A stretch of DNA of 64,000 nt from Patescibacteria group bacterium (GTDB lineage: Bacteria; Patescibacteriota; Microgenomatia; UBA8517): positions 419,578-483,577 of the forward strand of contig AP024680.1 in the NCBI GenBank assembly GCA_025999275.1, read 5' to 3'. Under the pieces are notes generated by a model, which saw only the letters and a list, made by a program, of their open reading frames with translations, had not been told where the DNA came from and did not search any database. This document shows, one piece after another, positions 1,008-44,917 of this stretch. Position numbers and translations under genes: made by a program. Every line of letters starts with the position of its first letter. Position 1 is the stretch's first letter.

Positions 1008-2660
1008 ATGAAGATTAAATTAAATTATGAGAGCTTTTTAATAATTTTGTTTTTATTTTTCTCTTCTTTAATTACTCTAAAAAATATATTTCACCCAGGT
1101 ATTTATACGGCTCATGATATTTGGCATAACCTAGCTCGTCTAAATTATTATTTTCAATTTTTGAAAGATGGGCAGGTACCTCCTTATTTTGGTTCTAATC
1201 TCGCTTATGGTTTTGGTTATCCTTTATTTTTGTTTTCCTATCATTTGCCTTGGATTTTTGGGTCTTTTTTGATGTGGCTTGGTTTTGGTGATGTTAACAC
1301 GATTAAGTTTTTGTTTTTGTTTAGTTTTTTTCTTTCTTGCGTTTCGATGTATTATTTGGCTTTTGAGATATCGAAGAATAAATTTATTTCTTTAGTTTCT
1401 TCAATCTTGTATCTATGGGCTCCTTATAGGTTTTTTATTATCTATGTTTCAGCTGCTGTTGGCATATCTTTTACTTTTATTTTTGTGCCTCTTTTGTTTT
1501 TAGGATTAATTAAGATTTATAAGTCAGAATTTACAAAAGGATTAATTTGGATGACTGTAGGTTTAACTGGTTTAATATTGTCTCATTTTCCAACGTTGGT
1601 GGTTTTTTTGCCTTTGTTTTTACTTTTGTCTGTTTATTTCTTTTTTATGTCTTCCAAAAAAGGGCTTTTTATCAAGTTTTTATTTCTTTCTTTTGTTCTT
1701 TCTTTAGGCATATCTTCTTTTTATTTTATTCCGGCGTTTTATTATAAGGGTCTTGTTTTGGGTTTACCATCCGTTTTTCATATGGGTTTTGTAACCTTGA
1801 GACAATTAATTTATTCCAAGTGGGGCTTTGGAATTATTGTTAATTCGGCTTCAGAAAACCCGTTTTCTTTTCAGATTGGAATATCTCAGTGGTTAATATT
1901 TTTGGTTAGTTTTTTGTTTGTTTTTTTAAACAGGGGCAAATCTAAGAATTTTCCTTTAATTTTAATTTTGATTTTCATTTTTTGTTTTAATGTTTTTCTT
2001 TCAACGTCTTTATCAAAAGCTCTGTGGAGTTCTTTTATCTCAAAAACTGGTCTTGATTTTCCTTTTCGGTTTATTTATCCCAACGTCTTTATCTCAAGTC
2101 TTTTGTTTGTTTATTTAATTAGAGAGATAAAAAATGATTTTATTTACTATTTTTTCTCATTTTTGCTTTTATTTATCGCGTTTTATACCAACCGTAACCA
2201 TATTCGTCCGAATATGTTTTTATCTGAAAATGAGTTTCGTCAGTTTGTTAATTCTGAGGTAACGACCAGTACTTATGGCGAATATTTTCCCTCTTTTGTT
2301 GATTTGTCTTTGGCAAATTACAATTTTAGGGAGATGATTATGAAACAAAACAATCTTTCTTTGGTTTATGAAAACAGCACAAAAAGTGTTTATAAAGTGT
2401 CTTTAGATAATGATGGGGAGGTCGTGTTGCCAAAATATGCTTACTCCTTTATTTCTTTGTATATAAATGGCGTCCCTCATGGCTTTATGATGGGGGAGGG
2501 TGGTTTGATAACATTATCTGTTAATAGAGGTTTGCAGGAGATAGAGGTTGTTTTTAACAAGAGTTTTATAATGAAGTTATCTTTTTATATAACAGTTCTT
2601 AGCTTGTTTGTTTTTTTATTAATTCTTTGGAAGAATATAAAAAGAAATTATGAAATATAG
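1008..2660 (+). CDS. polytopic membrane protein with extracytoplasmic C-terminal domain and terminal TM helix (YfhO-like architecture)
   Basis: approximately 12 TM helices then soluble stretch '...VVLPKYAYSFISLYINGVPHG...' then final TM helix; same topology as the YfhO at 12686-14974. Confidence 0.4.
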   Translation: MKIKLNYESFLIILFLFFSSLITLKNIFHPGIYTAHDIWHNLARLNYYFQFLKDGQVPPYFGSNLAYGFGYPLFLFSYHLPWIFGSFLMWLGFGDVNTIKFLFLFSFFLSCVSMYYLAFEISKNKFISLVSSILYLWAPYRFFIIYVSAAVGISFTFIFVPLLFLGLIKIYKSEFTKGLIWMTVGLTGLILSHFPTLVVFLPLFLLLSVYFFFMSSKKGLFIKFLFLSFVLSLGISSFYFIPAFYYKGLVLGLPSVFHMGFVTLRQLIYSKWGFGIIVNSASENPFSFQIGISQWLIFLVSFLFVFLNRGKSKNFPLILILIFIFCFNVFLSTSLSKALWSSFISKTGLDFPFRFIYPNVFISSLLFVYLIREIKNDFIYYFFSFLLLFIAFYTNRNHIRPNMFLSENEFRQFVNSEVTTSTYGEYFPSFVDLSLANYNFREMIMKQNNLSLVYENSTKSVYKVSLDNDGEVVLPKYAYSFISLYINGVPHGFMMGEGGLITLSVNRGLQEIEVVFNKSFIMKLSFYITVLSLFVFLLILWKNIKRNYEI

Positions 2661-4290
2661 AATAACTCTTATTTTAATTATTATAATTTCCTTTTTTCTA
2701 AGATTTTATAAAGTCACAGAGGTTCCTCCTTCTTTAAATTGGGATGAGGTTTCAATAGGTTATAATGCCTATTCTATTCTAAAGACTGGCAAAGATGAGT
2801 GGAATGAGTTCCTACCCTTACATTTCAAGTCCTATGGAGAGTATAAACTTCCTGCTCAAATTTATTTTTCTATTCCAGCAATTGCCATTTTTGGTCTGAA
2901 TGATTTTTCTGTGAGAATTACACCTGTAGTTTATGGGACATTAACCATTATTTTTCTCTATTTTCTTGCTCTGGAGGTATCAAAATCAAAGGCCATAGCC
3001 CTAATTAGTTCGTTCTTTTTGGCTGTTTCTCCTTGGCATATTCAACTGACTCGTGCTTCTTTTGAATCGTCTTTTGCATTGATGTGGGTTATTTTGGGTA
3101 TGATTTATTTAGTTAAAGGATTTAAAAAAAGAAAATTTTTTATTTTTTCAGCTTTGTTTTTTGCCCTTTCAATGTATACCTACAACTCTGCTCGTGGTTT
3201 TGTTCCTATCTTTATCTTAACTCTAATTCCCTTTTATCTTAGAGATTTTTTGAGGGAAAAGAGAGCAAGTCTTTTTTCAGGTTTTTTGTTTTTGATATTA
3301 ATTTTACCGATTTTTAATTTCTTGTTATTTGGGGAAGGAGAGGCTCGTTATAAATTGGTCAGTGTTACTGATGAAGCAGGGCTTATTCCAAGAATTGAGG
3401 AGAAAAGAAATTTTTCTAATCTACCCCCATTTTTAAAAAGACTTTTTTATAACAGGTACACTTTTATAAGTTATTATATTGCCAGGAATTATTTAGCCCA
3501 TTTTACACCGGATTTTCTTTTTATTAATGGAGCTGGACACAAACAACACCATCCTCAGGGTATAGGGCAGTTGTATTGGATTCAGGCACCATTCTTGCTT
3601 TTGGGATTTTACCTTTTGTTTAAGAATAAAAACAAATATAGATGGATTTTAATTTTATGGCTTTTAACCGCTTTTATACCAGTTTCACTAACCCGCGATA
3701 GCATACCTCATGCTTTGAGAACTTTAAACGCCGCTCCGGTTTATCAAATAGTAACTGCTATAGGTATTTACTATTCTTTTTTTTATTTGTTTAAAAAAGA
3801 TCTTACTACTTACTACTTTCTACTTGCTACTATTGTTTTTGTTTTTCTTTACCAATTTATCAAATATCAGATTTATTTTTATAAACAGTATCCAGTTTTA
3901 TATTCTCGGGATTGGCAGTATGGTAATAAGGAGGCAGTTTATTTTATTAAAGAGCACTATCATGATTATGATTTAATTGTTTTTACTCGTGAGTATGGGG
4001 AGCCTCATATGTTTACATTGTTTTATCTAAATTATCCGCCTGAAAAGTTTCAAAATGATAAAAACTTGGTTCGTTTTGAGACTTTTGATTGGGTTAGGGT
4101 TTTGAGATTTGATAAGTTTTATTTTCCTGATCTTGGAGATGAAGGAACAAAGGTTGAGTATATAAGAAAAGAATTTCCAAATAAGAAGATCTTATTTATA
4201 GCAACTCCTAGTGAGACCCCTTCTGGCCAGGAGATTTTATATAGTATTGATTTCCTTAATGGCAGTCGTGCTTTTAATATTTTCGAATGA
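2650..4290 (+). CDS. GT-C fold membrane glycosyltransferase, PMT/ArnT (GT39/GT83, PMT_2)-like, paralog 1 of tandem array
   Basis: N-terminal 'RFYKVTEVPPSLNWDEVSIGYNAYSILKTGKDEWNEFLPLHF' acidic DE loop motif typical of PMT/ArnT GT-C enzymes; approx 10 TM helices; C-terminal soluble domain with 'WQYG' motif; 11-nt overlap with upstream gene. Confidence 0.75.
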   Translation: MKYRITLILIIIISFFLRFYKVTEVPPSLNWDEVSIGYNAYSILKTGKDEWNEFLPLHFKSYGEYKLPAQIYFSIPAIAIFGLNDFSVRITPVVYGTLTIIFLYFLALEVSKSKAIALISSFFLAVSPWHIQLTRASFESSFALMWVILGMIYLVKGFKKRKFFIFSALFFALSMYTYNSARGFVPIFILTLIPFYLRDFLREKRASLFSGFLFLILILPIFNFLLFGEGEARYKLVSVTDEAGLIPRIEEKRNFSNLPPFLKRLFYNRYTFISYYIARNYLAHFTPDFLFINGAGHKQHHPQGIGQLYWIQAPFLLLGFYLLFKNKNKYRWILILWLLTAFIPVSLTRDSIPHALRTLNAAPVYQIVTAIGIYYSFFYLFKKDLTTYYFLLATIVFVFLYQFIKYQIYFYKQYPVLYSRDWQYGNKEAVYFIKEHYHDYDLIVFTREYGEPHMFTLFYLNYPPEKFQNDKNLVRFETFDWVRVLRFDKFYFPDLGDEGTKVEYIRKEFPNKKILFIATPSETPSGQEILYSIDFLNGSRAFNIFE

Positions 4291-7456: not shown

Positions 7457-8317
7457 ATGAGCAAGCTTTCTGTAGTTTTGGCAACATATAACGAAGAGAA
7501 TAATTTAGGTAGATGCCTTGGTGCAGTTAAAGAAATTGCGGATGAGATAGTTGTTGTTGATGGTTCTTCGACTGATAAGACTGTTGAAATAGCTAAAAAA
7601 TATAAAGCTCGTGTTTTAGTTGTTGATAATCCGCCAATCTTTCATATTAATAAACAGAAAGCCCTTGATATGGCCAGATATCCCTGGATTCTGCAGCTTG
7701 ATGCTGATGAAGTTGTATCAAAAGAACTTGCAGAAGAGGTGAGAAAAATAATTAAGATGAGTGATGAGGAAATTGATAATTATCAAAAGAATCTTCCTGA
7801 AAGGGATCTTTTTTTGAGACACCAGTCTTTGCTTGAAAAAAGGGATGGTAAGTTTGGTAATAAAGGTGAGTATGCAGGCTTTTTTATTCCAAGAAGAAAT
7901 TATTTTTTGGGTAAATTCTTAAGGTTTGGTGGTGTTTATCCTGATGGGGTAATTAGATTGGTTAAGAAAGGCAAGGCGTATTTTCCTTGTAAAAGTGTTC
8001 ATGAACAGATTGTAATTGATGGTAGGGTTGGTTGGCTTGCTAATCCACTTTTGCATTATGACTCCCCAACTTTTAAAAGATATCTTGAAAGAAATTCTCG
8101 TTATATCGATTTAATAGTGAAGGATCTAAAGGATAAAAAAGTGGGTAAAAATTTATTTGAGTTTTTAAATTATTTTTTCTTTAAGCCTGTCTGGTGGTTT
8201 TTCTTAACACAAATAAGACACAAAGGAATTCTTGACGGTTGGCAGGGTGTTGTTTTTAGTTTCTTTTCAGCGCTTAGATTTCCAAGAGCTTATTTTAGGT
8301 ATCTTGCAAATAAATAG
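7457..8317 (+). CDS. glycosyltransferase family 2 (GT-A fold)
   Basis: 'LSVVLATYNEENNL...VVVDGSSTDKT...LQLDADEV' canonical GT2 N-terminal and DXD motifs. Confidence 0.85.
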   Translation: MSKLSVVLATYNEENNLGRCLGAVKEIADEIVVVDGSSTDKTVEIAKKYKARVLVVDNPPIFHINKQKALDMARYPWILQLDADEVVSKELAEEVRKIIKMSDEEIDNYQKNLPERDLFLRHQSLLEKRDGKFGNKGEYAGFFIPRRNYFLGKFLRFGGVYPDGVIRLVKKGKAYFPCKSVHEQIVIDGRVGWLANPLLHYDSPTFKRYLERNSRYIDLIVKDLKDKKVGKNLFEFLNYFFFKPVWWFFLTQIRHKGILDGWQGVVFSFFSALRFPRAYFRYLANK

Positions 8318-9517: not shown

Positions 9518-11158
9518 AGATTAAAAAAAGAACGACCTTAATATTACTGGCTATAACTTTGATCGCTGCTTTTTTAAGATTTTACAAAATAGATAGAAAT
9601 CCTCCTAGTTTGACTGGTGATGAAATTTCTTTTGGCTATGCAGCTTACTCTATTTTGAAAACTGGTAGAGATGAATCTGGAAGATTCTTGCCACTTGTAA
9701 TTCAATCAATTGGTGATTACAAAAATCCTTTGCCAGCATATTTGATGGTTGTATCATTTAAATTTTTTGGAGTGAATGATTTTGCAGTTAGATTCCAGAA
9801 TGCACTTTTTGGGACATTAACAGTTTTTGTTTTTTTCTTTTTTCTTTTTTATCTCTTAAAGAATGATAAGCAAGCTTTATTGGGTAGTTTCTTTTTGGCT
9901 TTATCTCCATGGCATATTTTTTATTCTCGTTTTGCTTACGAACCATTGATTGCTAGTTTTTTTTGCTCTTTTAGGTATATGGTCTTTTATGAAGATGCTT
10001 GATAGCAAAAGCGTTAAATTTGCCTTCCTATCATCATTTTTTTTGATTCTAACCATGTATACAGGTTTTGCTCAAAGGTTATTTGTACCTGTTTTCTTCT
10101 TCTTTCTTGTTTTGTTTAATTTAAGAAAGTTGTTTAAGGTTAAAAAGATATTTTTAATTTTTTCTTTTTTATCATTCTTGTTTGTTTTGCCGCTAATCTA
10201 TGTCTCCTTATTTCAAGGAGCATCTACTAGATTTAAAATGGTTTTTATAGCTAATGATATAAATTATGTTCGTTATGTTATTTTTGGTTATGCAAGCCGT
10301 TTTATTGACTATTGTTATCTTTTCTTCTTCTGGATTAAAAGATATTTAAATTATTTACAACCTAGGTTTCTATTTTCAGATGCTTTGCAGATGGTTTTAC
10401 CAGGAAATATTGGATTAGGAATTTTATATCCTTTTGAGGGTTTGTTTTTGGTTTTTGGCATATTTGAGCTTATAAAAAGAAGAATTTTACATAAGGATAT
10501 GCTTTTAATTTGGCTTTTTACCGGTATAGTTCCTGATTCTATAACAAACAATGAGCAACATGCGGGTAGACTTCTTCATATAGCTCCACTTATATTTACT
10601 ATTACCACCTTAGGAGCAGTAAGTTTATGGCGTCTTTTAAATAAAAAAGTTAAGGGTATTAAAAGTTTTTTTATTTTATCTGTTCTTGTTGCCTTTTCTG
10701 TTTTAAATATTCTGTTTGCTTGGCTCTTGTTTAGAGTTCATTTTCCTTATCAAAAGAGTGAAGCTTTTGATGAGGGTTGGAGAGAAGTTGTTTATTCGGT
10801 AATGAAATATCAGGATAATTATGAAAAGATTATCTTTGATATCAGAAGGGGTGTTGATGGCCCATATATGGTGAGCAATCCTCATATGTATTTGTTGTTT
10901 TACTCCAAATATGATCCATCCAAATATCAAACAATAAAGAAAGTATTTAATGTGTATGGTGATAGTGAACCTTACTTTGCTTTTGATAAATATTCTTTTG
11001 GGTATATTAATTGGTACAGAGATTCTAAATATAAAAATACTCTTTTGGTAGGCAGTCCTTGGAGTTTCCCTAAGGAGGAAGATTTGGGAAATAAATTGAT
11101 TGAAAAGATTTATCTTTCGAACGGCAAACCCGCTTTTTATCTAGTTTCCACTGAATAG
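9514..11158 (+). pseudogene. GT-C PMT/ArnT-like paralog 4, interrupted by +1 frameshift inside a T8 homopolymer (9957-9964)
   Basis: ORF 9514-10002 carries the N-terminal 'RFYKIDRNPPSLTGDEISFGYAAYSILKTGRDE' motif and ends 'ASFFCSF...'; ORF 9950-11158 (TTG start in track) continues the paralog alignment ('ALLGIWSFMKMLDSK' matches 'FALMWVILGMIYLVKGF' of paralog 1); removing one T from the T8 run fuses the two into a single ORF of about 565 aa. Confidence 0.7.
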
Positions 11159-11188: not shown

Positions 11189-11881
11189 TTAAGTGAGATC
11201 ATTATCTTCGATTATTAATTTTTTAATTTTTTGGGTGTTTAATGAATATCTTTCTACAAAGTCTTTATAGTTGTTTATCTTCTTGAATTCGGGTGCTGTG
11301 GGTTTATTAAAAACTTGTAGTATGATATTCGGATTTATCCAAGCTGTTTTGCGTATTCCTAGATACTCTGCGTAGGAGGAGTAAGAATCTACTAGATTGT
11401 TAGCATACTCTTTGGGGTTTAGGTGGATATATCGTGACAAGTGAATTAATTGCTCATCGTTTTTAACAATAACTGCTTTATAATGCCCCTGGAATAGTTT
11501 TCCAACACGCTTATACTTTTTATTGAAATACATAGAATATCTGGTGGAAATTGACCTCATAAAACTTTCCATACCATTTTTGTTTTCTTGCTTTATTAGT
11601 AAATGGAAATGATTTGGCATTAGACAGTAGGCAATTAATTCTATTTCTTTGTTGTAATTTTTAGGTTGTCTGGGTACACCTTTAAAGGAGGCTCCTTTTA
11701 AGGTAAAAGTTTTTCTAATATCATCTGGTTTGGGAGGGGGCAGTAAGGCTTGCTTTAGATAGTTTAAGAATACTTTATAATCTTGGGAATCAAGGAAAAT
11801 TTTTCTTTTTTCAACACCCCTATTGTAAATGTGGTAGTAACCTTGCTCAAAGTATATTTTAATGGAGTTCTTTTGAGGCAT
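11189..11881 (-). CDS. IS200-like / REP-associated tyrosine transposase (HuH Y1 transposase, PF01797-like)
   Basis: 'YYHIYNRGVEKRKIF' N-terminus, HuH motif 'LMPNHFHLLI', catalytic-Tyr motif 'RYIHLNPKEY' - all hallmarks of TnpA(IS200)/RayT. Confidence 0.8.
   Translation of the reverse strand: MPQKNSIKIYFEQGYYHIYNRGVEKRKIFLDSQDYKVFLNYLKQALLPPPKPDDIRKTFTLKGASFKGVPRQPKNYNKEIELIAYCLMPNHFHLLIKQENKNGMESFMRSISTRYSMYFNKKYKRVGKLFQGHYKAVIVKNDEQLIHLSRYIHLNPKEYANNLVDSYSSYAEYLGIRKTAWINPNIILQVFNKPTAPEFKKINNYKDFVERYSLNTQKIKKLIIEDNDLT
11679..11703. repeat. palindromic REP-like motif copy B, located inside the transposase CDS
   Basis: CCTTTAAAGGAGGCTCCTTTTAAGG; encodes the in-frame segment '...LKGASFKGVPRQ...' of the transposase. 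Confidence 0.7.
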
Positions 11882-11958: not shown

Positions 11959-12705
11959 ATGGAACTTTTGGGTAAAAATGTTGTTATACTCGGGGCGACA
12001 GGGGGAATAGGAAGATCCCTCGCCTTTGCTTTTGCAGCTAAAGGCGCCAATCTTATCTTGACTGGTAGGAGAAAGAGAATTCTTGATGCGCTTTCAAAAG
12101 AAATTCGTAAATTTTCTGTTTCAGTTGATACTTTTACTCTTGATGTCACAAAAGAAAAAGAATGGAGGCCTTTTATAAGAAAGGTGGAAAGTAAATTTGG
12201 CCATATTGATATTTTAATTAATTCTTTTGGCGTTGGTATTTATAAAAAACTCAAAGATTTAGAGATAGAGGATTTTAAAAAGTCCATTGATGTTAATTTA
12301 AACTCTGTCTTTTTGTCGATTAAGAATTTTTTGCCGCTTCTTGAAAAATCTCATAAAGCCTATGTTTTGAGTCTTGGTTCTGGTATGGGTAAAATTGGCG
12401 TCTCAGGCAGGTCTTCTTATTGCGCTAGCAAGTTTGGATTAAGGGGGTTAATGCTTTCTCTTGCTAAGGAGTATAAAAGTACTAATATTAATTTCTGTCT
12501 TTTGACCTTAGGTAGCGTTCTGACAGCGTTTGGACCTTTAAGTCTTGAGGAAAAAATAGAAAAGCAAAAGAAGGGGAAGGGATATCTTGATCCAGTAAGC
12601 CTTGCCAAGGCTATAGCTTCAAAGATAGAAAATGAAACATTAGAAGAAGAAGTCTCTATTTATCCGTCTAGGTATTTTAAGGAATCTAAAAGTGGTGTTG
12701 TTTGA
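11959..12705 (+). CDS. short-chain dehydrogenase/reductase (classical SDR)
   Basis: 'VVILGATGGIGRSLA' TGxxxGxG NAD(P)-binding motif and 'YCASKFGLRG' YxxxK catalytic motif. Confidence 0.85.
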   Translation: MELLGKNVVILGATGGIGRSLAFAFAAKGANLILTGRRKRILDALSKEIRKFSVSVDTFTLDVTKEKEWRPFIRKVESKFGHIDILINSFGVGIYKKLKDLEIEDFKKSIDVNLNSVFLSIKNFLPLLEKSHKAYVLSLGSGMGKIGVSGRSSYCASKFGLRGLMLSLAKEYKSTNINFCLLTLGSVLTAFGPLSLEEKIEKQKKGKGYLDPVSLAKAIASKIENETLEEEVSIYPSRYFKESKSGVV

Positions 12706-14974
12706 TTTTTGTCTTTCTTGCTTCTATGGCTAGTATTAAAAACCAAATTACAAATGATATTCCTGATATTTTTTTCCCTAGTTGAAACATCTTTGGATAA
12801 TAATAAAATCTGATTATTCCTTTTCCTTCTGGAACTTCTACAGATCTAAATACTTCTAAGTATTTTTTGATAGGTACATCCTTGTTGTTTAACTGAGCTT
12901 TCCAGTCATTTGTATAAGTATCAGTTAGTATAAGATTTCCTTTTTCTGGAGTTGAAAATTCGATAAAAACTTCGTTTGGGGAGTATTTTACAATTTTTGC
13001 TTCTCCAACTATTTCTCCTTTATCACTTTCTATTCTTACTCTTTCTTTATATTTAGTGTTTTCTAAGATGTATACTGATCCGTATTCGTATACTTTTTGC
13101 CAGTCTCTTAAATTTATTGCCCAATAGGTATGCTTTCCTTCTTTGTCTATATTTGTATCGTTAGAGTATTTAAGAGCCAGTAGATATTTGACTGACAATT
13201 TTCCAAGCATATCTGCATCGTAGTTTGATGACAAATTTGAGTATCTGGAAAGAAATTTCAAATTTTGTTTTGATATCTGCTTTTGATAGAAAGCGACATA
13301 TTCCTTTAGAGCTAGAGGGTCATACCCCGATAAACTGTATAGTCTGTAGAAAGCCCATGTGTTTGGTGGTAGCAATGGCCCTCTTTCACTTTCTACTCTA
13401 GCTAGATTAGCATTTTCTTTGAGATAGTTGATTATTTCTGTATTTGGGTATGCAAATTTATTAGGTGTAAATGGTAGATATTTCCAATTGTAATAAAAAA
13501 GTTCAAATATTGTTACAATAACTATTGATATAGTAAGCAATTTATTTTTTTTGTTGAATATTAAAGAAAACACAATTATGGTAAATAGAATTCCTGTTGG
13601 TATTAGTGAGTTCTTTATTGCGATTTTTAGGTGCGATGCAGACTGTTCATTTGATTGATTCAAGAAAAAAATATATGTTACAAACAGCTCTAATATTATT
13701 AGAACTATTGCTAATAAATTTTTTTGAATAAATTTTGATACTTTTGTTTTGCTGTTGTTATCTAGCCATTTTCCTATTAGAACACTTCCACAAAATATAT
13801 AAACAAAACCCATTCTTCCAGCTGCGCTTGTGGTAATTAGGGGGAGTTTTGTTTGGTAAATCATTTTAGATAGAGGATTGTCAAATATGAGTAACAAAGA
13901 TAATAAGCACCATATGGTGAAAAATTTTTCTTCTTTGGAAAGAAGTTTGAAATTTATTATTGACCATATTATTGCGAAGATTCCTACTATTCCAAGATAT
14001 ATTGTCGTTTCATGATAGTTAAAAAAGCCCCAATAATTGCCTGTAACTGGGTTGCCAAAGAAATTTGGGGCTATCAAAGTGGCTAGGTGCCTTAATGGTA
14101 GTAATCCATAGTTGTACATTTGTATATAGTTTTCATTGAAGCGTATAGATTCTGTTAGTTGTTGATATGTTGGTAATACTTGTATTAATAAAGTGCCAAT
14201 TCCTAGAATTTCTACCAACAGGAAGTATGATAGTTTAGAAAGTTTGTTTTTTAAATCTGGGTTAAGAATTTTAAGAAGAAAATAGCTGTTGAATATTATT
14301 AGAGAAAATATAAATGCTTGAAAATGACCCGAAGAACCAAGCAGAAATATTAAAGGAACAGCTAGTAACAAGTATATTTTTTTATTTTTTTCTTCGTATT
14401 GGTTTATAAGTAAGAGAAGCAGAGGCAAATAAATCATAGCAAATCCCAAATTTGCAAATTGCAACCATGTTATGGCGAAAGTTGAAAAGGTGTAACAGAT
14501 AGATCCAAGAATGGCAGGTAATTGGGATATTCTAAGTGATCTAAGGAAAAAGTACATAGATATTATAGAACCAATACTTTGAGAAATTATCATTAGGTTC
14601 CATCCTTTTAGATCTCCAAGAAATATTTGAAATAGGTTGAATGGATTTAGGGCTCCTGATTGAAAATTAGCCAATAGGGGGATTCCTGCATATTCATATG
14701 GGTTCCAAAGAGGCCACTGAAAGTTTCTATAAGATTCAGCAATCAATGACTTCCATATAAATATTTGAGAAAATATGTCAGATATTAAAGGATTTTTTAT
14801 TGGTACTCCTACTATATAGCCCCACTTATAATCTAGCCAAGGATAATATGCTCCAACCAAGAGATCTCCTGGAAATAATATTAGTCCTTTAAATATCGCT
14901 TTCCAGTAAAAAGCTATTACTATCAATATTAGAAGTGAAATAAAAAAAATTTCTTTGGTTTTTATTTTTTTCAC
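12686..14974 (-). CDS. YfhO-family polytopic membrane protein (GT-C-like glycan transferase)
   Basis: 762 aa; N-terminal '...LFPGDLLVGAYYPW', many TM helices, extracytoplasmic domain '...NDWKAQLNNKDVPIKKY...' followed by terminal TM - YfhO architecture; converges on and overlaps SDR gene by 20 nt. Confidence 0.6.
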   Translation of the reverse strand: MKKIKTKEIFFISLLILIVIAFYWKAIFKGLILFPGDLLVGAYYPWLDYKWGYIVGVPIKNPLISDIFSQIFIWKSLIAESYRNFQWPLWNPYEYAGIPLLANFQSGALNPFNLFQIFLGDLKGWNLMIISQSIGSIISMYFFLRSLRISQLPAILGSICYTFSTFAITWLQFANLGFAMIYLPLLLLLINQYEEKNKKIYLLLAVPLIFLLGSSGHFQAFIFSLIIFNSYFLLKILNPDLKNKLSKLSYFLLVEILGIGTLLIQVLPTYQQLTESIRFNENYIQMYNYGLLPLRHLATLIAPNFFGNPVTGNYWGFFNYHETTIYLGIVGIFAIIWSIINFKLLSKEEKFFTIWCLLSLLLIFDNPLSKMIYQTKLPLITTSAAGRMGFVYIFCGSVLIGKWLDNNSKTKVSKFIQKNLLAIVLIILELFVTYIFFLNQSNEQSASHLKIAIKNSLIPTGILFTIIVFSLIFNKKNKLLTISIVIVTIFELFYYNWKYLPFTPNKFAYPNTEIINYLKENANLARVESERGPLLPPNTWAFYRLYSLSGYDPLALKEYVAFYQKQISKQNLKFLSRYSNLSSNYDADMLGKLSVKYLLALKYSNDTNIDKEGKHTYWAINLRDWQKVYEYGSVYILENTKYKERVRIESDKGEIVGEAKIVKYSPNEVFIEFSTPEKGNLILTDTYTNDWKAQLNNKDVPIKKYLEVFRSVEVPEGKGIIRFYYYPKMFQLGKKISGISFVIWFLILAIEARKTKIKQHHF

Positions 14975-17318: not shown

Positions 17319-17710
17319 TTTTTGTTTTTATGAATTACAGAAGCGCCAAAAGAGAGGTGAAGCTTACTTTTTCAGATGATGATTGGAGGAACTTTTGGAT
17401 ATTGCAAAAGTAAAGGATCTTAATAAAGAATCTGTAAGGAAGTTGTTTTGCTTAGCTTTTAAACTTTTTATCAGCGATTAATACTCCATTGACGATTTAT
17501 CAGCAATTTGTGACAGATTATTTTCAGTCTTGGTTAGGTCTGGCACCAAAAAGTATCCCGAGCTTCTTGATGGAGTGGAAGCAGGTTCTGAGATTTCTTT
17601 TTACATCAGAGACATTAATCTTCTTCCTATTTTTAATAGATTTTTAAAAGATATTTTTGACGTTTATTATCTTGTTTCTAAAAAAAATAGGGTATTTTCT
17701 TTTTTTATTA

Positions 17711-18747: not shown

Positions 18748-19833
18748 ATGTTCAAAAAGGTAGACTTTTTTGTTTTATCTTTTCTTCTTTTTTCATTTTT
18801 TGTCATTCTCTTTTTTAGAAAACCTGATATCTTTCATTATCGTTTTAATGAGAGGTTAATCTCTGATTATTTGCGAAGCCAAGATATAGAGGATAAAGAA
18901 AGAAAAATAAAGGACAGAATATTTTTGTCAGATGCTGATATTTATCTTGCTTCTGGCGTTCTTTATGCCATGGGAGAGGATCCAACAAAATTTAATTTCC
19001 AACATCCTCCTTTGGTTAAATATCTTTTTGGTTTTTCTAATCTATATTTTGGCAATCCTTACTATGTGCAAGTATTTTTTTCATCCTTAATTATTATTTT
19101 GACTTATATCTTGGGTCTAAAAATTTTTAAAAGCAGAAAAGTTGCTTTTTTATCATCTTTAATGTTAACTTTTGATCCGATTTTACTTTCAACCACTTCA
19201 CAAACTCTTCTTGATAACACAAATACAGCTTTTTCTTTGTTATTTGTTTTATTGTTTCTTTTATTTCCTAACAACTTTATTCTTAACGGCATTGTCTTGG
19301 GTCTTCTTTTTGCCTCCAAGTTTTGGAGTACTAGTTTGATTTTGGTCATTTTTGTTTTTGCTTATCATTATTTTGTTTTAAAGAAGAAGATTAAACCAAG
19401 GTCTATTTTTTTAACTTTTTTGATTGCTGTTTTCGTTTTTTGTCTTTTTTATCTGAAGACTTTTGTCAATCATGGTGGAAAATTTAATATTTTATTTTTT
19501 GAAATTAAGAATTTAAAATTTATGCTTTCTCACAATAGCTCGCCTGTTCTTGGCAATTCCTTGATTCTTTTTTTGACTGGTCATTTTGTTGATTGGTGGG
19601 GAAGCGGGAAGTGGCTTTCTGCTGATGTTTGGAGTTTTCTTTGGCCAGTTTCTTTTTTGTTTGTTTTGCTGAATCTTAAAAAAGGTTTAAAGGAAAAAGA
19701 GAAGGGCTTGTTTTTTCTTTATCCCTTTGTCTTCTTTTTAACCAGTCTTTTTAACACCGCCTTTACCCGTTATTTTCTTCTAATTTTGCCTTTTTTCTAC
19801 CTCTCTTTTTCTTATTTATTAATAAAAAAATAA
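18748..19833 (+). CDS. GT-C fold membrane glycosyltransferase, PMT-like (short form)
   Basis: 'EDPTKFNFQHPPLVKYLFGFS' resembles the conserved HPPLgK loop of PMT/PMT_2 proteins; polytopic. Confidence 0.55.
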   Translation: MFKKVDFFVLSFLLFSFFVILFFRKPDIFHYRFNERLISDYLRSQDIEDKERKIKDRIFLSDADIYLASGVLYAMGEDPTKFNFQHPPLVKYLFGFSNLYFGNPYYVQVFFSSLIIILTYILGLKIFKSRKVAFLSSLMLTFDPILLSTTSQTLLDNTNTAFSLLFVLLFLLFPNNFILNGIVLGLLFASKFWSTSLILVIFVFAYHYFVLKKKIKPRSIFLTFLIAVFVFCLFYLKTFVNHGGKFNILFFEIKNLKFMLSHNSSPVLGNSLILFLTGHFVDWWGSGKWLSADVWSFLWPVSFLFVLLNLKKGLKEKEKGLFFLYPFVFFLTSLFNTAFTRYFLLILPFFYLSFSYLLIKK

Positions 19834-19852
19834 TGGTCAATGGTCAATGGTT
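19831..19852. repeat. heptamer tandem array TAATGGT-CAATGGT-CAATGGT
   Basis: same YAATGGT heptamer arrays recur at 44451-44486 (direct) and 44877-44910 (inverted). Confidence 0.7.
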
Positions 19853-19920
19853 GAGGGTTAATATTCGTCAGCTCCTTTTCCACTTCTATATTTTACTTGC
19901 TACTGTCTCTTGTCTCTGCT

Positions 19921-19998
19921 TTTCTACCCTCTTCTACCCTTCCACTCTTCTATTCTTCCGCTCTCTTCTACTCTTCCACTCTTCTACTCTTCCACTCT
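19921..19998. repeat. G-poor C/T-rich tandem repeat, about 4.5 copies of a 16-18 nt unit (CTCTTCTACTCTTCCACT)
   Basis: 19929-19946, 19947-19962, 19963-19980, 19981-19996 degenerate copies; top strand has a single G in about 90 nt. Confidence 0.75.
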
Positions 19999-20042
19999 TA
20001 TTTATCATTGACTGCTTTTGGCGGTTTTGTTTTAATTAGATT

Positions 20043-20366
20043 ATGCAGAAGGAAAATCATCAAGAATTTATAACTAAAGACTTTCTCCAAGAGTCTCTTC
20101 AAGATTTTGCTGATACAATTCTTGCGGGTATGTATGATATGTATAACAAGTTAGACAGAAGACTAATGAACGTCGAGGAAAGGTTAATGAATGTTGAAGG
20201 AAGATTAACAAACGTTGAGGAAAGGTTAACTTCGGTTGAGTGGCAGGTTGATTCTTTGAACAGAAAGTTTGAAGCCCAGCAAGTTAGGTTGGATAGGCAT
20301 GATAGTCGGATTTCCAAGCTTGAGAAAATTCACCCCAATGGCAAACATTCTTTGCCTGCCTATTAG
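20043..20366 (+). CDS. small coiled-coil protein with four in-frame 21-nt (heptad) tandem repeats
   Basis: 'RLMNVEE RLMNVEG RLTNVEE RLTSVEW' encoded by 20159-20242 (4 x 21 nt). Confidence 0.5.
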   Translation: MQKENHQEFITKDFLQESLQDFADTILAGMYDMYNKLDRRLMNVEERLMNVEGRLTNVEERLTSVEWQVDSLNRKFEAQQVRLDRHDSRISKLEKIHPNGKHSLPAY

Positions 20367-20469
20367 CATTTGTTTTAATTAAGGGTGGCTTTTATAGCGC
20401 CCTACTTTCTACCCATCTAGCCTCTTCTTTCTGACATGGTTATTATCTAGAATTTATTCTCTTACCCCT

Positions 20470-20510
20470 TACCCATACCCCATAATTCTTAAATCTTAAA
20501 TCCACAACCT
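20470..20510. repeat. direct repeat copy A (TACCCCATAATTCTTAAATCTTAAATC)
   Basis: shares 'CCCCATAATT...ATCTTAAATC' with copies at 21626-21668 and 22049-22102. Confidence 0.6.
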
Positions 20511-21531
20511 AAAATTTATTATCTACAGCATTTCTTTGGATTATTATTTCTTTAAATGCTTGGATAAATGATATTGCTGTTATGAAGAATCTTCCGTTTT
20601 CAAGCAAAATTGGCTTTAATGTTAGGTAGTAGTAATTTTCTTTCTGATATTTTTGCCCATAGAATTGGTTATGGAGATTCGCGTAAAGCTTGCTTGGTTT
20701 TTTGGCATTGTTTTTATAAATAAAATATTCAAATAATCCATTTACAATAAGATCTTTTGTTTTAAACCACAGATAAGCCCAGAATTCTTCTTCTGGTGCA
20801 ATTTTCCTTGCAAGCTCTAAAGCAAATCTGTGAGCGTATTTTTCTTTTTGATAGTTGGTTAGCAAGAGATGATTTTTGTTTTCTTTTATCATTTCCATTT
20901 CTTGTCGTGCATGTCCTAACTCGTGTATGAAAGTGAATATAGAGGGTATTGTTTTATATTTTAGACTGCATCTTATTTCAAATATTTTTTTGTTCTTGTT
21001 GTAAAGGCAGGAGGCTTCTTCATCTTTTATTATTTTTATTTTTTTGATTATTTCTTTTGCTAAAGGGTCTGATTCTTGCCAAATTTTATATACTTCTTCC
21101 AATTGGTATTCCTTTTGAGATTTGTGTTTAGGGAAAGTTAAGTAGTGTTCCGACCAGTATTCTTTTGGCAATCCCTTTTTGAATCTTACTTTTTGATTTA
21201 TGAATGATGTAATTTTTTGGGAGTCTTTGACCAAATTTTCAAGATTTTTCTGAGGGATTTTGTTGTTTTTTGCTAATTCATCGATGAAGTTTTTATATCC
21301 TTTATGTACTGAGGATTTTTTTAGGAAGTCTGTAAATTTACAGAAATATTTTTCTGCCTCTTTTAAGTCTTTTTTGTAAGCCTCAAACCTTTTTAATTTC
21401 TGTTTGTAGCTGATTTTTGCGACTAATATCTTTCTTATCTTATTTGCTTTTTCTTCTGGTATTAAGTTTCTTATTTTTTGAAGTTCAATTGCAGCATCAA
21501 AGAGAGCGGCTTTATAGTATATGTTTATCAT
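20509..21531 (-). CDS. hypothetical protein with HExxH zincin-type motif (putative metallopeptidase)
   Basis: 'FTFIHELGHARQEME'; Lys-rich N-terminal half; no other recognisable family. Confidence 0.4.
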   Translation of the reverse strand: MINIYYKAALFDAAIELQKIRNLIPEEKANKIRKILVAKISYKQKLKRFEAYKKDLKEAEKYFCKFTDFLKKSSVHKGYKNFIDELAKNNKIPQKNLENLVKDSQKITSFINQKVRFKKGLPKEYWSEHYLTFPKHKSQKEYQLEEVYKIWQESDPLAKEIIKKIKIIKDEEASCLYNKNKKIFEIRCSLKYKTIPSIFTFIHELGHARQEMEMIKENKNHLLLTNYQKEKYAHRFALELARKIAPEEEFWAYLWFKTKDLIVNGLFEYFIYKNNAKKPSKLYANLHNQFYGQKYQKENYYYLTLKPILLENGRFFITAISFIQAFKEIIIQRNAVDNKF

Positions 21532-21625
21532 TTTTAAATTTGATTGATTTTATCAAATATTTTATTTTTTTCTTTCATTTAATTGCAGATTGATTGACGG
21601 TTTTATTTTGAGTGTGTTTTCTTTT

Positions 21626-21668
21626 TCCCAATAATTCATAATTCATAAATCTTAAATCATAAATCATA
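21626..21668. repeat. direct repeat copy B (CCCAATAATTCATAATTCATAAATCTTAAATCATAAATCAT)
   Basis: see copy A. Confidence 0.6.
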
Positions 21669-22048
21669 TTTATCTATTTAGGATTTATTTTGCTCTTATA
21701 TTATTCCAGCACTTCACTTTTAAGAAGCATTGCTTGTTTTATCCAGAAGTCTTGCCAAATTTCTTCAAGAAGACTCTTTTGTGTTGGTGTGAGTATGGTT
21801 TTTACCATAACCAAGAGGAAAGAACTTTCTTTCTTTTTGGGTCAATATCAAGCTTATCCCAATATTTTCTCAATAGTTTTTCTTTTATTTTTTTACCTCT
21901 GAGGCCAAAGTTTATTTGCTGCTCTAGTTTCCAGATTATATATTTTTCTTTGTCTTTTTTTAATTTTTTGGTATCTACACTCCAGTTATACATAGTTAAT
22001 TATGTCATTTTAGCTTTCCTTTTTCTTTATAGAATTATAGTCAAAATT

Positions 22049-22102
22049 ATTCTCTTAATCCTTACCCCGTACCCCATAATTAATAATTCATAGATCTTAA
22101 AT
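22049..22102. repeat. direct repeat copy C (CCTTACCCCGTACCCCATAATTAATAATTCATAGATCTTAAATCAT)
   Basis: see copy A; followed by (ATTTTGCAT/ATTTTGAAT) x4 and a TGTATAAT -10-like box before GT2 start 22190. Confidence 0.6.
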
Positions 22103-22189
22103 CATTTTTCCAATTTTTGACTTTTGAATTGTAATTTTGCATTTTGCATTTTGAATTTTGAATTATTATTTTGCTGTATAATATTCCCA

Positions 22190-22960
22190 ATGGCGCGCTA
22201 CCCTAAAATTTCAATTGTTGTTCCTTCTTTTAACAAAGTAGATTTTATTAAAGACACTTTGCGATCAATTGTTTCTCAAAAATATCCCAATTTAGAGGTG
22301 ATAATTCAAGATGGGGGATCAACAGATGGAACTTTAGAGGTAGTTAAAAAATATCAGAAGAAATACCCCAAGGTTTTTAAAGTTGAAAGTAAAAAAGATA
22401 AAGGCCAGCTTGATGCAATAAACAAAGGGCTAAAGAAGGCAACAGGGGAAATATTAAGTTTTATCAACGCGGATGATTTTTATGAAGATAAGGCTTTTTA
22501 TAAGGTGGCAGATTTTTATCTTAAAAATAAAGATGCTTTATGGTTTGCCGGAAAGGGGAGAGTGGTTAATAGAGAAGGGAAAGAAATTGCCAAAATCGCC
22601 ACACTTTATAAAAATTTTCTTTTGAACCTTTCTAATATTCAATTTCTACTTGTTACCAATTATCTTTTTCAGCCTTCAGTTTTTATAACTCGCAAAGCCT
22701 ACAATAAATACGGCCCTTTTACAGGCACTAAAACTGCGGTTATGGAATACGATTTATGGCTTAAACTTTTTTCAGTTTCAAAGCCAGTGGTTATTCCTTA
22801 CTATCTTTCCTCGTTTCGCCTTTACAAAGGTTCAATTTCAACTTCAAAATTCAAAGATATGATGAAAGAAGATGAAAAAATAGCCAAAAAATATACATCT
22901 GATCCTTTGGTTTTACTTCTTCATAAAATGCACAACTTAGCAAAATTTTTCTGGGCATAA
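22190..22960 (+). CDS. glycosyltransferase family 2
   Basis: 'KISIVVPSFNKVDFIKDTLRSI...EVIIQDGGSTDGT...FINADDF'; start at internal ATG 22190 of track ORF 22124. Confidence 0.85.
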   Translation: MARYPKISIVVPSFNKVDFIKDTLRSIVSQKYPNLEVIIQDGGSTDGTLEVVKKYQKKYPKVFKVESKKDKGQLDAINKGLKKATGEILSFINADDFYEDKAFYKVADFYLKNKDALWFAGKGRVVNREGKEIAKIATLYKNFLLNLSNIQFLLVTNYLFQPSVFITRKAYNKYGPFTGTKTAVMEYDLWLKLFSVSKPVVIPYYLSSFRLYKGSISTSKFKDMMKEDEKIAKKYTSDPLVLLLHKMHNLAKFFWA

Positions 22961-23019
22961 TTTGTTTTTAATTGAGATTTAGATAATTAAATTATAATAT
23001 TGTTTTAAGATTCTAATAT

Positions 23020-35828: not shown

Positions 35829-37394
35829 ATGTTTAATTTATCCTATCTTACTTTTTCTGATGCGGCGAAGTTTGCTGATTTGGCAAGGAATTTTGTTTTA
35901 GGAAGAGGGTGGGGTTCTTCTTTTTCTTTCTTTTCTCCCTCTATTTTCCAACAGTTGGAAAAAACTCTTTTTGATATGGGTATTTTTCCTTTGACTCCTT
36001 TTTTTATTTCTTTATCTTTTAGAATTTTTGGAATCTCTGATTTTGCAGTAATTGCCACTTCATTTTTCTTTTATGTTTTATCTTTGGTTTTTACATTTTT
36101 ACTTTCAAGAAAGATTTTTAAAAGCAGTTTAATTGGTTTTCTTTCTTTGCTGGTTGTTGGTTTTAATCTTAATCTTATTGATTATGCAACAAGCGGGGCG
36201 TCGGAGGCTTTGTTTATCGCTGAGATATTGCTTCTTTTTTATCTTCTTTCTTTCAAGAAGAAAGTTTTTGATTTATTTTCTTTACTGGTTATTGTACTGA
36301 TGTATTTTACTCGAGCTCATGCATTTATTTTTATAGCAGGCGCTTTACTTTTTTGGCTTCTTTTACGATTTGATGTTAAAAAATCTCTTTTTTATTTTTC
36401 TTTCATTTTGATTTTGGGTCTTTTATTTGATCGTTTTGTTCTTTCCTCTTTATCTGGCAAGTTTTTCATTTATTCAATTTTGGGAGGGGGGAAGTATGCA
36501 GTTTTACAACACAATTCTTCATGGGCGGTTTCTGACACCTTGCGAGGTCTTCCTCGCCAGTCTTTTGATTTGATTTCTGTTTTAAAGAAAGTTTTTTACA
36601 ATCTTTACAACTTCTATAAATTGATGCCACAGATTATGAATCCTTATTTATTTGCTCTTTTTCTCATTGGTCTTTTTGCTTGGGGTAAAGATAGGCTGCA
36701 AAATTCATTTAAGATTGCCTCATTGTTTATGGTGTTTTTAACTTTTTTGGTTGCTGCCGCTTCTATTCCGTTTTTCCGCTATATTCATCCAGTTGTTCCA
36801 CTAGTTTATATCTTGGCAGTAGGAACACTTGTAGAGATAATTTCTAAATTAGAAATTCTAAATTCTAAACTAAAGATATCAAAACAAAAATTAGTTATTT
36901 TTTCTTCCTTATTTCTTATTCTGTTTTTTGGGGTTGGGCAGAGCGTTGGCGTTCTTCTTCTTGATAGACGTTTTGAAAGGAGAGTTTATAATTTTGATAA
37001 GCCCCCAGTTTATGTTTTGCTTTCAAAAATTATTAAGGAAAATACAGATCCTAACGAGGTTATTTTGACTAATCTTGATACTTGGGGCAGTTGGTATGGG
37101 GAAAGGAGAACTGTTTGGTTTCCATTAACACCGAAGCAGATAATTAATCCTGAAAATGGAAAAATTCCTTTTGACGCTATTTATCTTACAAGCTACAAAA
37201 TGGACGACCCAAATTATTATATGGGAAATGAGTGGAGACTTATTTTTGAAAACCCCCAAAGTCCTGAAAAATGGAATTGTGAAGGGTGTGATCAGATTGC
37301 AAAGGAATTTACCCTAAAGGGTGTTTATAAAGTTATTCCTGACGATGATTATGAAAGACAAGGTGAAATTAGTATTATTTTAGTTAAGAATTAA
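35829..37394 (+). CDS. GT-C fold membrane glycosyltransferase, ArnT/PMT_2-like
   Basis: 'FSDAAKFADLARNFVLGRGWG' resembles ArnT-type acidic/Arg motif; polytopic with C-terminal soluble domain. Confidence 0.55.
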   Translation: MFNLSYLTFSDAAKFADLARNFVLGRGWGSSFSFFSPSIFQQLEKTLFDMGIFPLTPFFISLSFRIFGISDFAVIATSFFFYVLSLVFTFLLSRKIFKSSLIGFLSLLVVGFNLNLIDYATSGASEALFIAEILLLFYLLSFKKKVFDLFSLLVIVLMYFTRAHAFIFIAGALLFWLLLRFDVKKSLFYFSFILILGLLFDRFVLSSLSGKFFIYSILGGGKYAVLQHNSSWAVSDTLRGLPRQSFDLISVLKKVFYNLYNFYKLMPQIMNPYLFALFLIGLFAWGKDRLQNSFKIASLFMVFLTFLVAAASIPFFRYIHPVVPLVYILAVGTLVEIISKLEILNSKLKISKQKLVIFSSLFLILFFGVGQSVGVLLLDRRFERRVYNFDKPPVYVLLSKIIKENTDPNEVILTNLDTWGSWYGERRTVWFPLTPKQIINPENGKIPFDAIYLTSYKMDDPNYYMGNEWRLIFENPQSPEKWNCEGCDQIAKEFTLKGVYKVIPDDDYERQGEISIILVKN

Positions 37395-44438: not shown

Positions 44439-44450
44439 GATAAAAGCTGA

Positions 44451-44486
44451 TAATGGTTAATGATTGATGACTAATGGTTAATGATT
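44451..44486. repeat. heptamer array: two direct copies of TAATGGTTAATGAT; second copy contains the start codon of the 4HB gene
   Basis: perfectly complementary to 44877-44890. Confidence 0.75.
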
Positions 44487-44870
44487 AAGAAAAAGAATAA
44501 TCTTTATAGGACTGTTGAAGACGTGCCTGTGTGGCAATTGTCGCATCAGCTAACTCTTAGAGTTTATAAATTAACAGAGGCCTTTCCTAGGGCTGAGGTA
44601 TATGGTCTAACCTCTCAGATTAGGAGGTCTGCCAGTTCTGTGTCAGCGAATATATCTGAGGGTTTCTATAGGAATAGCACAAAAGAGTTGATAAATTTTC
44701 TATATAACGCGAGAGGGTCGTTGGGAGAAACGCTTTATCACATAAGGCTTGCAAGAGATTTGGGTTTATTAAATTCTTCTGATTTTGAAAGTCTTAAAAA
44801 TGGCTATAATTTACTTGGTAGACAATTGAATGGATGGATTAGGAGTCTTAAATTGAAAATTAATGGTTGA
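44481..44870 (+). CDS. four helix bundle protein (TIGR02436 / 23S rRNA intervening-sequence protein family)
   Basis: 'VYKLTEAFPRAEVYGLTSQIRRSASSVSANISEG'. Confidence 0.85.
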   Translation: MIKKKNNLYRTVEDVPVWQLSHQLTLRVYKLTEAFPRAEVYGLTSQIRRSASSVSANISEGFYRNSTKELINFLYNARGSLGETLYHIRLARDLGLLNSSDFESLKNGYNLLGRQLNGWIRSLKLKING

Positions 44871-44876
44871 TAAGTA

Positions 44877-44910
44877 AAGATCATTAACCATTAACCATTG
44901 ACCATTGACT
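44877..44910. repeat. inverted heptamer array (ATCATTAACCATTAACCATTGACCATTGACTATT)
   Basis: reverse complement of the upstream array and of 19831-19852. Confidence 0.75.
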
Positions 44911-44917
44911 ATTATTT

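Follow-up and report, generated by a model that had tools for sequence, protein, structure and literature searches.

The 64,000-nt stretch of DNA analysed here (the window, in which coordinates count from the first letter; G+C about 30%) carries a glycan locus of a Patescibacteria group bacterium. Within this locus, an island of 2.36 kb (19834-22189) separates the open reading frame (ORF) of a membrane glycosyltransferase of the GT-C type (18748-19833) from a GT2 gene whose ATG lies at 22190 (match to Pfam Glycos_transf_2, E 5e-31). Compared with its relatives, the interval between the two genes proved to be a variable hotspot. An independent Logan assembly (run DRR290133) agrees with the window at every position over 12,432 nt and covers the whole island, which is therefore not an assembly artefact; the two assemblies show zero difference in the copy number of the repeat arrays, and both probably come from the same sample. 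The features of the island, with tandem repeats as called by Tandem Repeats Finder (TRF), are the following.

19832-19852, plus strand: AATGGTC heptamer array, 2.9 copies (TRF), overlapping the GT-C stop codon
19929-19999, plus strand: G-poor 8/16-nt tandem repeat, CTCTTCTACTCTTCCA, 4.3 copies (TRF, 84% matches)
20043-20366, plus strand: gene (ORF) for a 107-aa coiled-coil protein, with an in-frame repeat of period 21 in 3.1 copies (TRF; RLMNVEE-type heptads)
20461-20504, plus strand: repeat copy 1, CTTACCC CTTACCC ATACCCC ATAATTC TTAAATC TTAAATC, in the spacer where the 3' ends of the convergent coiled-coil and peptidase genes face each other
20509-21531, minus strand: gene for a predicted 340-aa compact M3-like (gluzincin) zinc oligopeptidase, intact, with HELGH at residues 203-207
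21626-21668, plus strand: repeat copy 2, ATAATTC twice, then TAAATCT/TAAATCA three times, in the spacer from the AbiEii stub to the start codon of the peptidase gene (TRF: ATAAATC, 5.4 copies)
21701-21808, minus strand: putative 35-aa remnant of an AbiEii (PF08843) toxin, the N-terminal ~16 residues fused in frame to the C-terminal ~19
21802-21993, minus strand: gene for a conserved 63-aa small protein, the usual upstream partner of AbiEii genes, with 178 homologues
22054-22105, plus strand: repeat copy 3, CTTAATC CTTACCC CGTACCC CATAATT AATAATT CATAGAT CTTAAAT, upstream of the 63-aa gene
22115-22174, plus strand: TTTTGAA/TTTTGCA heptamer array, 7.3 copies (TRF), 15-75 nt upstream of the GT2 start

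An earlier note on this DNA had described an abrupt change to non-glycan content between the GT-C stop at 19833 and the GT2 start, and every element that it listed was found again at or near the place given for it. Two details were revised: the motif of about 35-40 nt is made up of heptamer tandem units, and the supposed low-complexity stretch with small ORFs holds a real 63-aa gene and the 35-aa AbiEii remnant. The deviation in composition that the note had suggested looking for was not seen, as the tetranucleotide distance of the island lies at the 47th percentile, the G+C profile is ordinary and synonymous codon usage is unexceptional. Scans of the three island proteins against Pfam, NCBIfam, PHROGs and PADLOC left the 340-aa and the 63-aa protein without a family and returned generic coiled-coil noise for the 107-aa protein. 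An Rfam scan of 19000-23000 gave nothing credible, and promoter-like and terminator-like sites at the locus were not above those in shuffled sequences.

A variable interval in a conserved glycan locus

Two relatives with long contigs were available for the comparison of gene order, namely L006 from a JGI (Joint Genome Institute) hot-spring metagenome and L008 from "Candidatus Woesebacteria bacterium Ch104a", to which the locus L004 also belongs. In both, the order GT2-Y1_Tnp-adh_short-GT4-mannosyltransferase (ManT2)-gmd-GT-C-[X]-GT2 is kept, with proteins about 47-50% identical. The closest relative of the GT-C protein (59% identity) is found in L024, where the order agrees as far as the short contig reaches. 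The content of X in the four genomes is given below.

Window: coiled-coil gene, peptidase gene and putative AbiE remnant
L006: four-helix-bundle (4HB) gene (L006:11342-11677) with inverted heptamer arrays on either side (87% complementary over 55 nt)
L008: coiled-coil gene, heptamer arrays and a minus-strand HTH_3 gene
L024: heptamer arrays, an inverted CCCCATAAT.ATAATTCATA motif and a minus-strand AbiEii gene, followed by the end of the contig

Heptamer arrays thus occur at the junction in all four genomes, with a different cargo in each, and within the shared block of the three long loci (window, L006 and L008) they are confined to the GT-C/GT2 junction. This shows that the GT-C/GT2 interval is a variable hotspot inside a conserved glycan locus. 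Patescibacteria have tiny genomes, for which a streamlined and mostly syntenic organisation is usually assumed; the comparison presented here uncovers a fixed site in a conserved cell-surface glycosylation cluster that turns over small genes, namely toxin-antitoxin (TA) pairs, 4HB genes of the intervening-sequence (IVS) type, a coiled-coil gene and a peptidase gene.

The synteny comparison proposed in the earlier note gave a divided answer: the interval is variable and its cargo differs in every genome, and the island is not present or absent as a unit. In L008 the coiled-coil gene is shared, the peptidase gene lies elsewhere and the TA pair is absent. Judged from this gene order, with the coiled-coil gene syntenic and the peptidase elsewhere in relatives, the island is not a single unit.

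Genes carried by the island

The 107-aa coiled-coil protein matches a 122-aa protein encoded at L008:11197-11565 (BLASTP E 2e-17, 30% identity), and both genes directly follow GT-C; the coiled-coil gene is syntenic with that of Woesebacteria Ch104a. In L008 it is flanked by 26-nt direct repeats (11105-11130 and 11600-11625, 92% identical), the first of which is the 3' end of the GT-C coding sequence. Both contain the 12-mer core GAAGAGTAGAAG, which they have in common with the G-poor repeat of the window; the reverse complement of the latter carries this core in 6 matches within 19931-19992, where 0.41 would be expected. To us, the L008 repeats look like the duplication or att-like signature of an insertion of the coiled-coil gene.

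We read the 340-aa protein as a compact M3-like zinc oligopeptidase, its fold and activity being predicted from a structural model. The AlphaFold2 model has a predicted local distance difference test score (pLDDT) of 87.5 and a predicted template modelling score (pTM) of 0.88. The best Foldseek matches are the M3B enzymes Pz-peptidase A and oligoendopeptidase F (PepF; structures 3ahm, 3aho and 2h1n), with E 4e-5 and a query-normalised TM-score (TMq) of 0.56-0.61, only about 40% of these targets being covered; M32 peptidases, neurolysin and angiotensin-converting enzyme (ACE) follow. In the alignment of homologues, H203 and H207 are invariant, while E204 and E230 are kept in at least nine of ten, the truncated outlier P0010 differing at E204. 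A Glu located 26 residues after the second His of HExxH is the putative third ligand. The protein shares this combination of HExxH and downstream Glu with peptidase family M3 and the wider M2/M3/M32 gluzincin fold, but at 340 aa it is about 220 residues shorter than M3 enzymes (about 560-680 aa), is only 9-15% identical to them and matches no family profile. Indeed, no Pfam or NCBIfam match was obtained, a search of the PDB with a family profile gave chance matches only, and a single distant relative reaches 20.8 bits against Peptidase_M3, for which the cutoff is 27. A weak PADLOC match to capP (E 0.0027) had raised the possibility of an ImmA/IrrE-type protease, which was rejected after the structure search gave the M3/M32/ACE fold.

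Close homologues of the peptidase number only ten among 5.8 billion proteins, and none of the 147 distant clusters is named. Among the reference genomes, a homologue was present only in "Candidatus Woesebacteria bacterium Ch104a". The gene, which is probably single-copy, stands in other contexts in the relatives, between topA and a dCMP deaminase gene in L002 and between queA and tRNA/rpmG in L004 (Ch104a); further contexts were seen on short contigs. These homologues are 48-53% identical, compared with 47-50% for the syntenic GT-C. Searches for phage and viral relatives of the peptidase and of the coiled-coil protein found none. The divergence of the peptidase, similar to that of GT-C, together with the native composition and the lack of phage or viral relatives in these searches, therefore points to relocation within the lineage rather than acquisition from outside. 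In raw codon frequencies the peptidase gene is the most atypical of 46 genes, a result that was ascribed to amino-acid composition and discarded. In synonymous usage it ranks 7th of 46, and every one of the most atypical genes lies on the minus strand. The L002 homologue stands between two stretches of heptamer arrays, each about 200 nt long and inverted with respect to one another (46 nt, 89% complementary), and a short Logan contig of this gene starts in the arrays and ends just beyond them.

Directly upstream of the peptidase homologue, a gene for a conserved 63-66-aa 'MGPGxK...' protein was observed in L004 (9665-9865), L011 (130-321) and L021 (2702-2893); in L004 and L011, a hairpin separates it from the peptidase gene. 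This gene is absent from the window. The 63-aa ORF of the island, which we had expected to be a relative of the 'MGPG' proteins of L004, L011 and L021, was found to be unrelated.

Instead, the homologues of the 63-aa protein in L013-L018 directly precede, and overlap, a ~220-aa PF08843 (AbiEii) gene. The homologues listed are about 58-98% identical and come from Patescibacteria and one Cytophagales bin. The protein has no direct Pfam match above threshold; it is a putative antitoxin by virtue of gene adjacency only. In the window, the overlap is preserved with a 35-aa stub, whose translation (MVKTILTPTQKSLLEE joined to IWQDFWIKQAMLLKSEVLE) matches the two ends of the L016 AbiEii protein (MVKTILTTKQTSLLKQL...WQNFWLEEARKLKKKALLN), about 185 codons having been deleted in frame. 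The tblastn matches of the stub alone are weak (E 0.009-0.4), and we call it an AbiEii remnant because both of its ends match, because of its position and because of the overlap with the upstream gene. The arrangement resembles AbiE-family type IV TA modules with a DUF6922-type partner, in which the small gene is the conserved overlapping upstream partner of ~220-aa AbiEii genes, but here the toxin is reduced to an in-frame stub and the partner falls below the Pfam threshold. Taken together, the 63-aa gene and the stub appear to be a decayed TA module that lacks an intact AbiEii toxin. A second AbiE-type module in the window, at 51468-52339 on the plus strand, is apparently intact and consists of a DUF6922 gene (E 4e-20) and an AbiEii gene (E 6e-17).

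Repeat copies, heptamer arrays and four-helix-bundle cassettes

The three repeat copies of the island are in direct orientation and significantly similar, with local alignment scores of 41-58 against null maxima of 29-49 from about 2,900 random 81-nt windows. The similarity is highest between copies 1 and 3 (score 58, null maximum 29), which differ by one 7-nt indel, share the non-repeat 5' flank ATTATTCTCTTA and form direct repeats flanking 20505-22053. The exact 12-mers TACCCCATAATT and ATCTTAAATCAT occur twice each in the window, in the island only. TRF places period-7 arrays at 19832, 20463, 20483, 21631 and 22115, and units drift gradually along each array, with copies differing by whole 7-nt units. 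The motif of about 35-40 nt that the earlier note had seen three times thus has three real copies, yet by its structure it is a composite of heptamer tandem units (TTACCCC, ATAATTC and TAAATCT/A) and not a discrete att site. Neither internal inverted symmetry nor a palindromic attC-like structure was found in the three copies. According to the inverted-repeat analysis, the TTTTGAA array in front of GT2 is of the inverse type of its neighbours, reading AAAATTC on the other strand, and a T-rich heptamer array lies directly upstream of the orthologous GT2 in L006 as well.

Period-7 arrays are clearly enriched in the window, with 12 found against 1.85 expected from dinucleotide shuffles (shuffle maximum 6). 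When T-rich low complexity is excluded, 6 of about 9 fall in the island; elsewhere there are a pair at 44.45/44.88 kb and two arrays inside long ORFs, namely CTTACTA in four copies at 3798-3833 (ORF 2650-4290) and TAAATTC in four copies at 36845-36874 (ORF 35829-37394). The exact 17-mer GTCAATGGTCAATGGTT is present in the window only at 19836-19852 on the plus strand and 44893-44909 on the minus strand (0.07 expected), and the 22-mer ATAAATCTTAAATCATAAATCA of copy 2 is identical to arrays that flank the peptidase homologue in L002. The CCCCATAAT.ATAATTCATA motif inverted just after GT-C in L024 is related to copy 3. Overall, at least four other related genomes contain the unit family, either in direct or in inverted orientation; arrays from five genome sources include tandem units of the form AAAT[TC][ACT][CT], and genomes whose proteins are only about 50% identical have the family in common. 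As the unit family recurs elsewhere in the genome, for instance with the 17-mer, and in relatives, the repeats do not qualify as a specific att site.

These results support the att-like or recombination-cassette reading of the earlier note in part. What stands is that a variable insert lies in a conserved locus, that the peptidase gene has other loci in relatives, that repeats bracket two minus-strand modules and that the coiled-coil gene of L008 has its own 26-nt repeats; what fell is the specific att site, a recombinase match among the scanned ORFs, a deviating composition and the unity of the insert. In its strict form, this reading would make the motif the att- or attC-like site of a site-specific recombinase and the two modules horizontally acquired cassettes. 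The three direct copies do partition the minus-strand modules, and pairs of the AbiE type are typical examples of mobile or selfish modules, the small partner here being 58-76% identical among distant members of the Patescibacteria. About 8 kb upstream of the island there is also a RAYT-like gene for a Y1 transposase (11189-11881, minus strand; PF01797; NCBIfam REP-associated tyrosine transposase (RAYT) E 7e-13, below cutoff), but its position in the glycan locus is kept in L006 and L008 despite the different cargo, which suggests a domesticated RAYT-like gene. In the comparison with family libraries, which covered island ORFs and a few neighbours, the island ORFs that were scanned (107, 340, 63 and 119 aa) gave no match to integrase or recombinase families, and the pattern TACCCCATAATTN{1,15}ATCTTAAATC has zero matches in 185,579 reference genomes, the source genome not being among them. 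The lineage-typical divergence of the peptidase without phage or viral relatives, the composition and the lack of a palindrome in the motif also speak against a classical integrated element, as does the composite nature of the island. As in integrons and att islets, the modules are small, promoter-poor, of one orientation and each followed by a repeat, TA cargo is included and the content varies at a fixed site; in contrast to them, neither IntI nor another recombinase was matched by the scanned ORFs, the repeats consist of tandem heptamers instead of imperfect-palindrome attC sites, and they also occur singly, inverted and around core genes. We regard such an element as very improbable and as the least likely of the rival explanations.

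The array pair at 44.45/44.88 kb encloses a gene for a 129-aa four-helix-bundle or '23S rRNA IVS protein' (44481-44870; PF05635 E 1e-36, TIGR02436 E 2.4e-36). The arrays are inverted (44450-44485 and 44880-44915; 36 nt, 81% complementary), and the same anatomy was found at L006:11100-11780 and L021:149-717, so that inverted arrays flank 3/3 4HB genes seen, all of them between protein-coding genes. The RNA of these cassettes folds with a terminal stem, with z = -3.6 for the window (44449-44915) and z = -7.4 for L006. Including the arrays around the L002 peptidase, the matched inverted pairs measure 36-55 nt with 81-89% complementarity. The island itself has no such terminal inverted-repeat stem and keeps a solo AATGGTC array (19832-19852), which is of the same type as the flanks at 44.45/44.88 kb and is possibly the solo scar of a 4HB-type cassette. 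A tblastn search with two 4HB proteins for a gene remnant beside this array gave no match with E<1 in 19834-22189.

Tandem heptamers are known as the STRR-type (short tandemly repeated repetitive) repeats of cyanobacteria. TAACTGA heptanucleotide repeats have been described as intergenic elements in Beggiatoaceae, Cyanobacteria and Bacteroidetes (MacGregor 2015, PMC4679880), where mixed heptamer assemblages occupy spacers that close relatives lack, and where they were suggested to take part in gene rearrangement (PMC4679880). The repeats of the island resemble these in being short 7-nt tandem arrays, in the window mostly between genes, with several unit types per spacer and spacers longer than in close relatives. 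They differ in their units, which are the A/T-rich AAATTCC, TAAATCA and AATGGTC plus TTACCCC, in their host, a Patescibacteria genome of ~0.8 Mb, and in forming matched direct or inverted pairs around what appear to be single relocating genes rather than lying mainly just upstream of start codons. The S23p-type IVS of Coxiella was reported to have a stem of terminal inverted repeats, 28 bp long, together with a four-helix-bundle ORF and heptameric tandem repeats whose number varies (PMC4990558). The 4HB cassettes share with the 23S rRNA IVS of Coxiella and Leptospira (PMC4990558) a PF05635/TIGR02436 ORF within terminal inverted repeats that fold into a long stem, but they lie between protein-coding genes and not in helix 45 of the 23S rRNA, and their inverted termini are heptamer arrays. 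The island retains the solo array only; a complete cassette is present at the same junction in L006 and, within the window, at 44.45-44.9 kb. The heptamer arrays CTGACAG, CTGATGT and CCGATGT at L011 2400-2483 and L024 1860-1920 resemble the GACAGAT heptamers of the Coxiella IVS, which may be coincidence. Heptamer-repeat arrays are already known in Cyanobacteria, Beggiatoaceae and the Coxiella IVS, and a full-text literature search turned up no paper that combines "heptamer repeats" with "Patescibacteria".

Possible origins of the interval's content

The explanation that we favor, and hold to be somewhat probable, is that the interval is a permissive, recombination-prone hotspot at which dispersed heptamer arrays recombine and thereby exchange small genes, either selfish or relocated, the mechanism being inferred. 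Small dispensable or selfish genes would be gained, would be lost and would decay between GT-C and GT2 of a vertically inherited glycosylation locus in a Woesebacteria-like member of the Patescibacteria; the cargo comprises the coiled-coil gene, a relocated M3-like mini-oligopeptidase and an AbiE-type pair in the window, and 4HB (IVS-type) and HTH genes in relatives. The modules are separated by arrays of one lineage-wide unit family (AAATTCC, AAATCAC, TAAATCA, AAAATTC, AATGGTC and others) dispersed in the genome. Ectopic recombination between similar arrays at different loci, possibly aided by slippage, could then excise array-bounded segments and re-insert them. A moved segment would be left between directly repeated hybrid arrays, as might be the case for copies 1 and 3 around the peptidase and AbiE segment. 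Inverted arrays flanking 4HB genes could in addition form the IVS-like terminal RNA stem. The AbiEii toxin would have been inactivated after insertion by the in-frame deletion, and the peptidase may have been kept intact as a useful host gene. Besides the gene order, the changing loci of the peptidase and the shared array units, this explanation draws on signs of decay, namely the AbiEii stub and a pseudogene at 17404-17667 from a family that adjoins the peptidase homologue in other genomes.

Several points weigh against this explanation. No recombination event or intermediate was observed directly, and there is no high-identity pair of an empty and a filled site, as even the closest relatives have proteins of no more than about 50-59% identity. 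What is said of the arrays across the genome is an extrapolation based on a single window plus some ten loci. The essential gene topA has arrays next to it too, as seen in L002, where little else than heptamer arrays makes up the spacer between dprA and topA (7542-7696), in inverted orientation to the arrays that follow on the opposite side of topA, and the peptidase gene of Ch104a was relocated but has no flanking arrays. Arrays are therefore neither sufficient nor necessary for relocation. Their orientation is inconsistent as well, being direct in the island and inverted in L002, and similar arrays could arise convergently by biased slippage in any tolerated spacer.

The last of these points leads to a neutral alternative, in which the interval would be an operon boundary that tolerates insertions, the arrays would be by-products of slippage with no role in gene movement, and the similarity of the copies would stem from local duplication or convergence. 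According to work cited in PMC4679880, heptanucleotide repeats are the commonest class of long simple sequence repeats (SSRs) in many prokaryotes and are ascribed to polymerase slippage. The gradual drift of units and the whole-unit differences between copies fit such an origin, and so do the array-only spacer next to topA, the native composition of the island and the array-free relocation in Ch104a. Against it stand the identical 17-22-mers shared by loci at a distance of 25 kb and by different genomes, and the matched inverted array pairs at 3/3 4HB genes and the L002 peptidase, which independent local slippage would not be expected to produce. The non-repeat flank common to copies 1 and 3 and the concentration of arrays at the sole variable junction of a conserved block in three genomes are further points against it. 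We consider neutral accumulation possible, if on the whole unlikely.

A regulatory role of the arrays appears improbable. They would tune the glycosyltransferase operon and the flanked genes through copy number or through protein binding to DNA or RNA, chiefly by the sevenfold TTTTGAA array upstream of GT2. The T-rich array directly upstream of the orthologous GT2 genes of the window and L006 would agree with this, and the persistence of the unit family among genomes of about 50% protein identity hints at constraint. Among the precedents described in PMC4679880 and PMC12721329 are heptanucleotide repeats in Haemophilus promoters and 5' untranslated regions and TAACTGA sites in Beggiatoaceae proposed as translational regulator sites. 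Nevertheless, the arrays are imperfect mixtures of units and thus poor at slipping, their orientation to the flanked genes is inconsistent, promoter-like and terminator-like sites are not enriched over shuffles, and no Rfam family was found. In L008, the arrays are located 550 nt from GT2 with a gene in between. Copy number is equal in the two assemblies, though, as mentioned, these probably represent one sample.

A further reading, which we judge unlikely, would give the arrays a more specific function as termini of undescribed mini-cassettes related to S23p-type IVS, either recombinase-less or mobilised in trans. The 4HB protein or the RAYT-like Y1 protein would recognise the arrays and shuffle single genes, including housekeeping cargo such as the mini-peptidase, between array-marked intergenic sites, which would amount to a dispersed system for shuffling genes in ultra-small genomes.

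If arrays do mediate exchange, this would explain the relocation of single genes in genomes with few classical mobile elements, and it would link S23p/IVS elements to heptamer repeats outside rRNA. It would also be a likely reason for assembly breaks at such genes, many homologues being found on contigs of 1-4 kb. Independently of the mechanism, three "hypothetical" genes of the island have received an annotation, as a member of a predicted M3-like mini-oligopeptidase family of about 150 unnamed clusters, a putative AbiEii partner and a presumably decayed toxin.

Two further differences to the relatives were observed in the glycan locus. A gene for a 762-aa YfhO-family membrane protein (12686-14974, minus strand) lies between adh_short and GT4 without flanking heptamer arrays; since adh_short and GT4 adjoin in L006 and L008, it would be either another lineage-specific insertion or a gene lost in the relatives. 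The 410-nt gap between the mannosyltransferase gene and gmd is filled by a pseudogene (17404-17667, plus strand) that has in-frame stops, lacks the N-terminus and belongs to an unnamed family of 129-147 aa (tblastn E 5e-26, 51% identity). The same gap measures 45 nt in L006, and in L008 the two genes overlap. Members of this family adjoin the peptidase homologue in L011 and L012.

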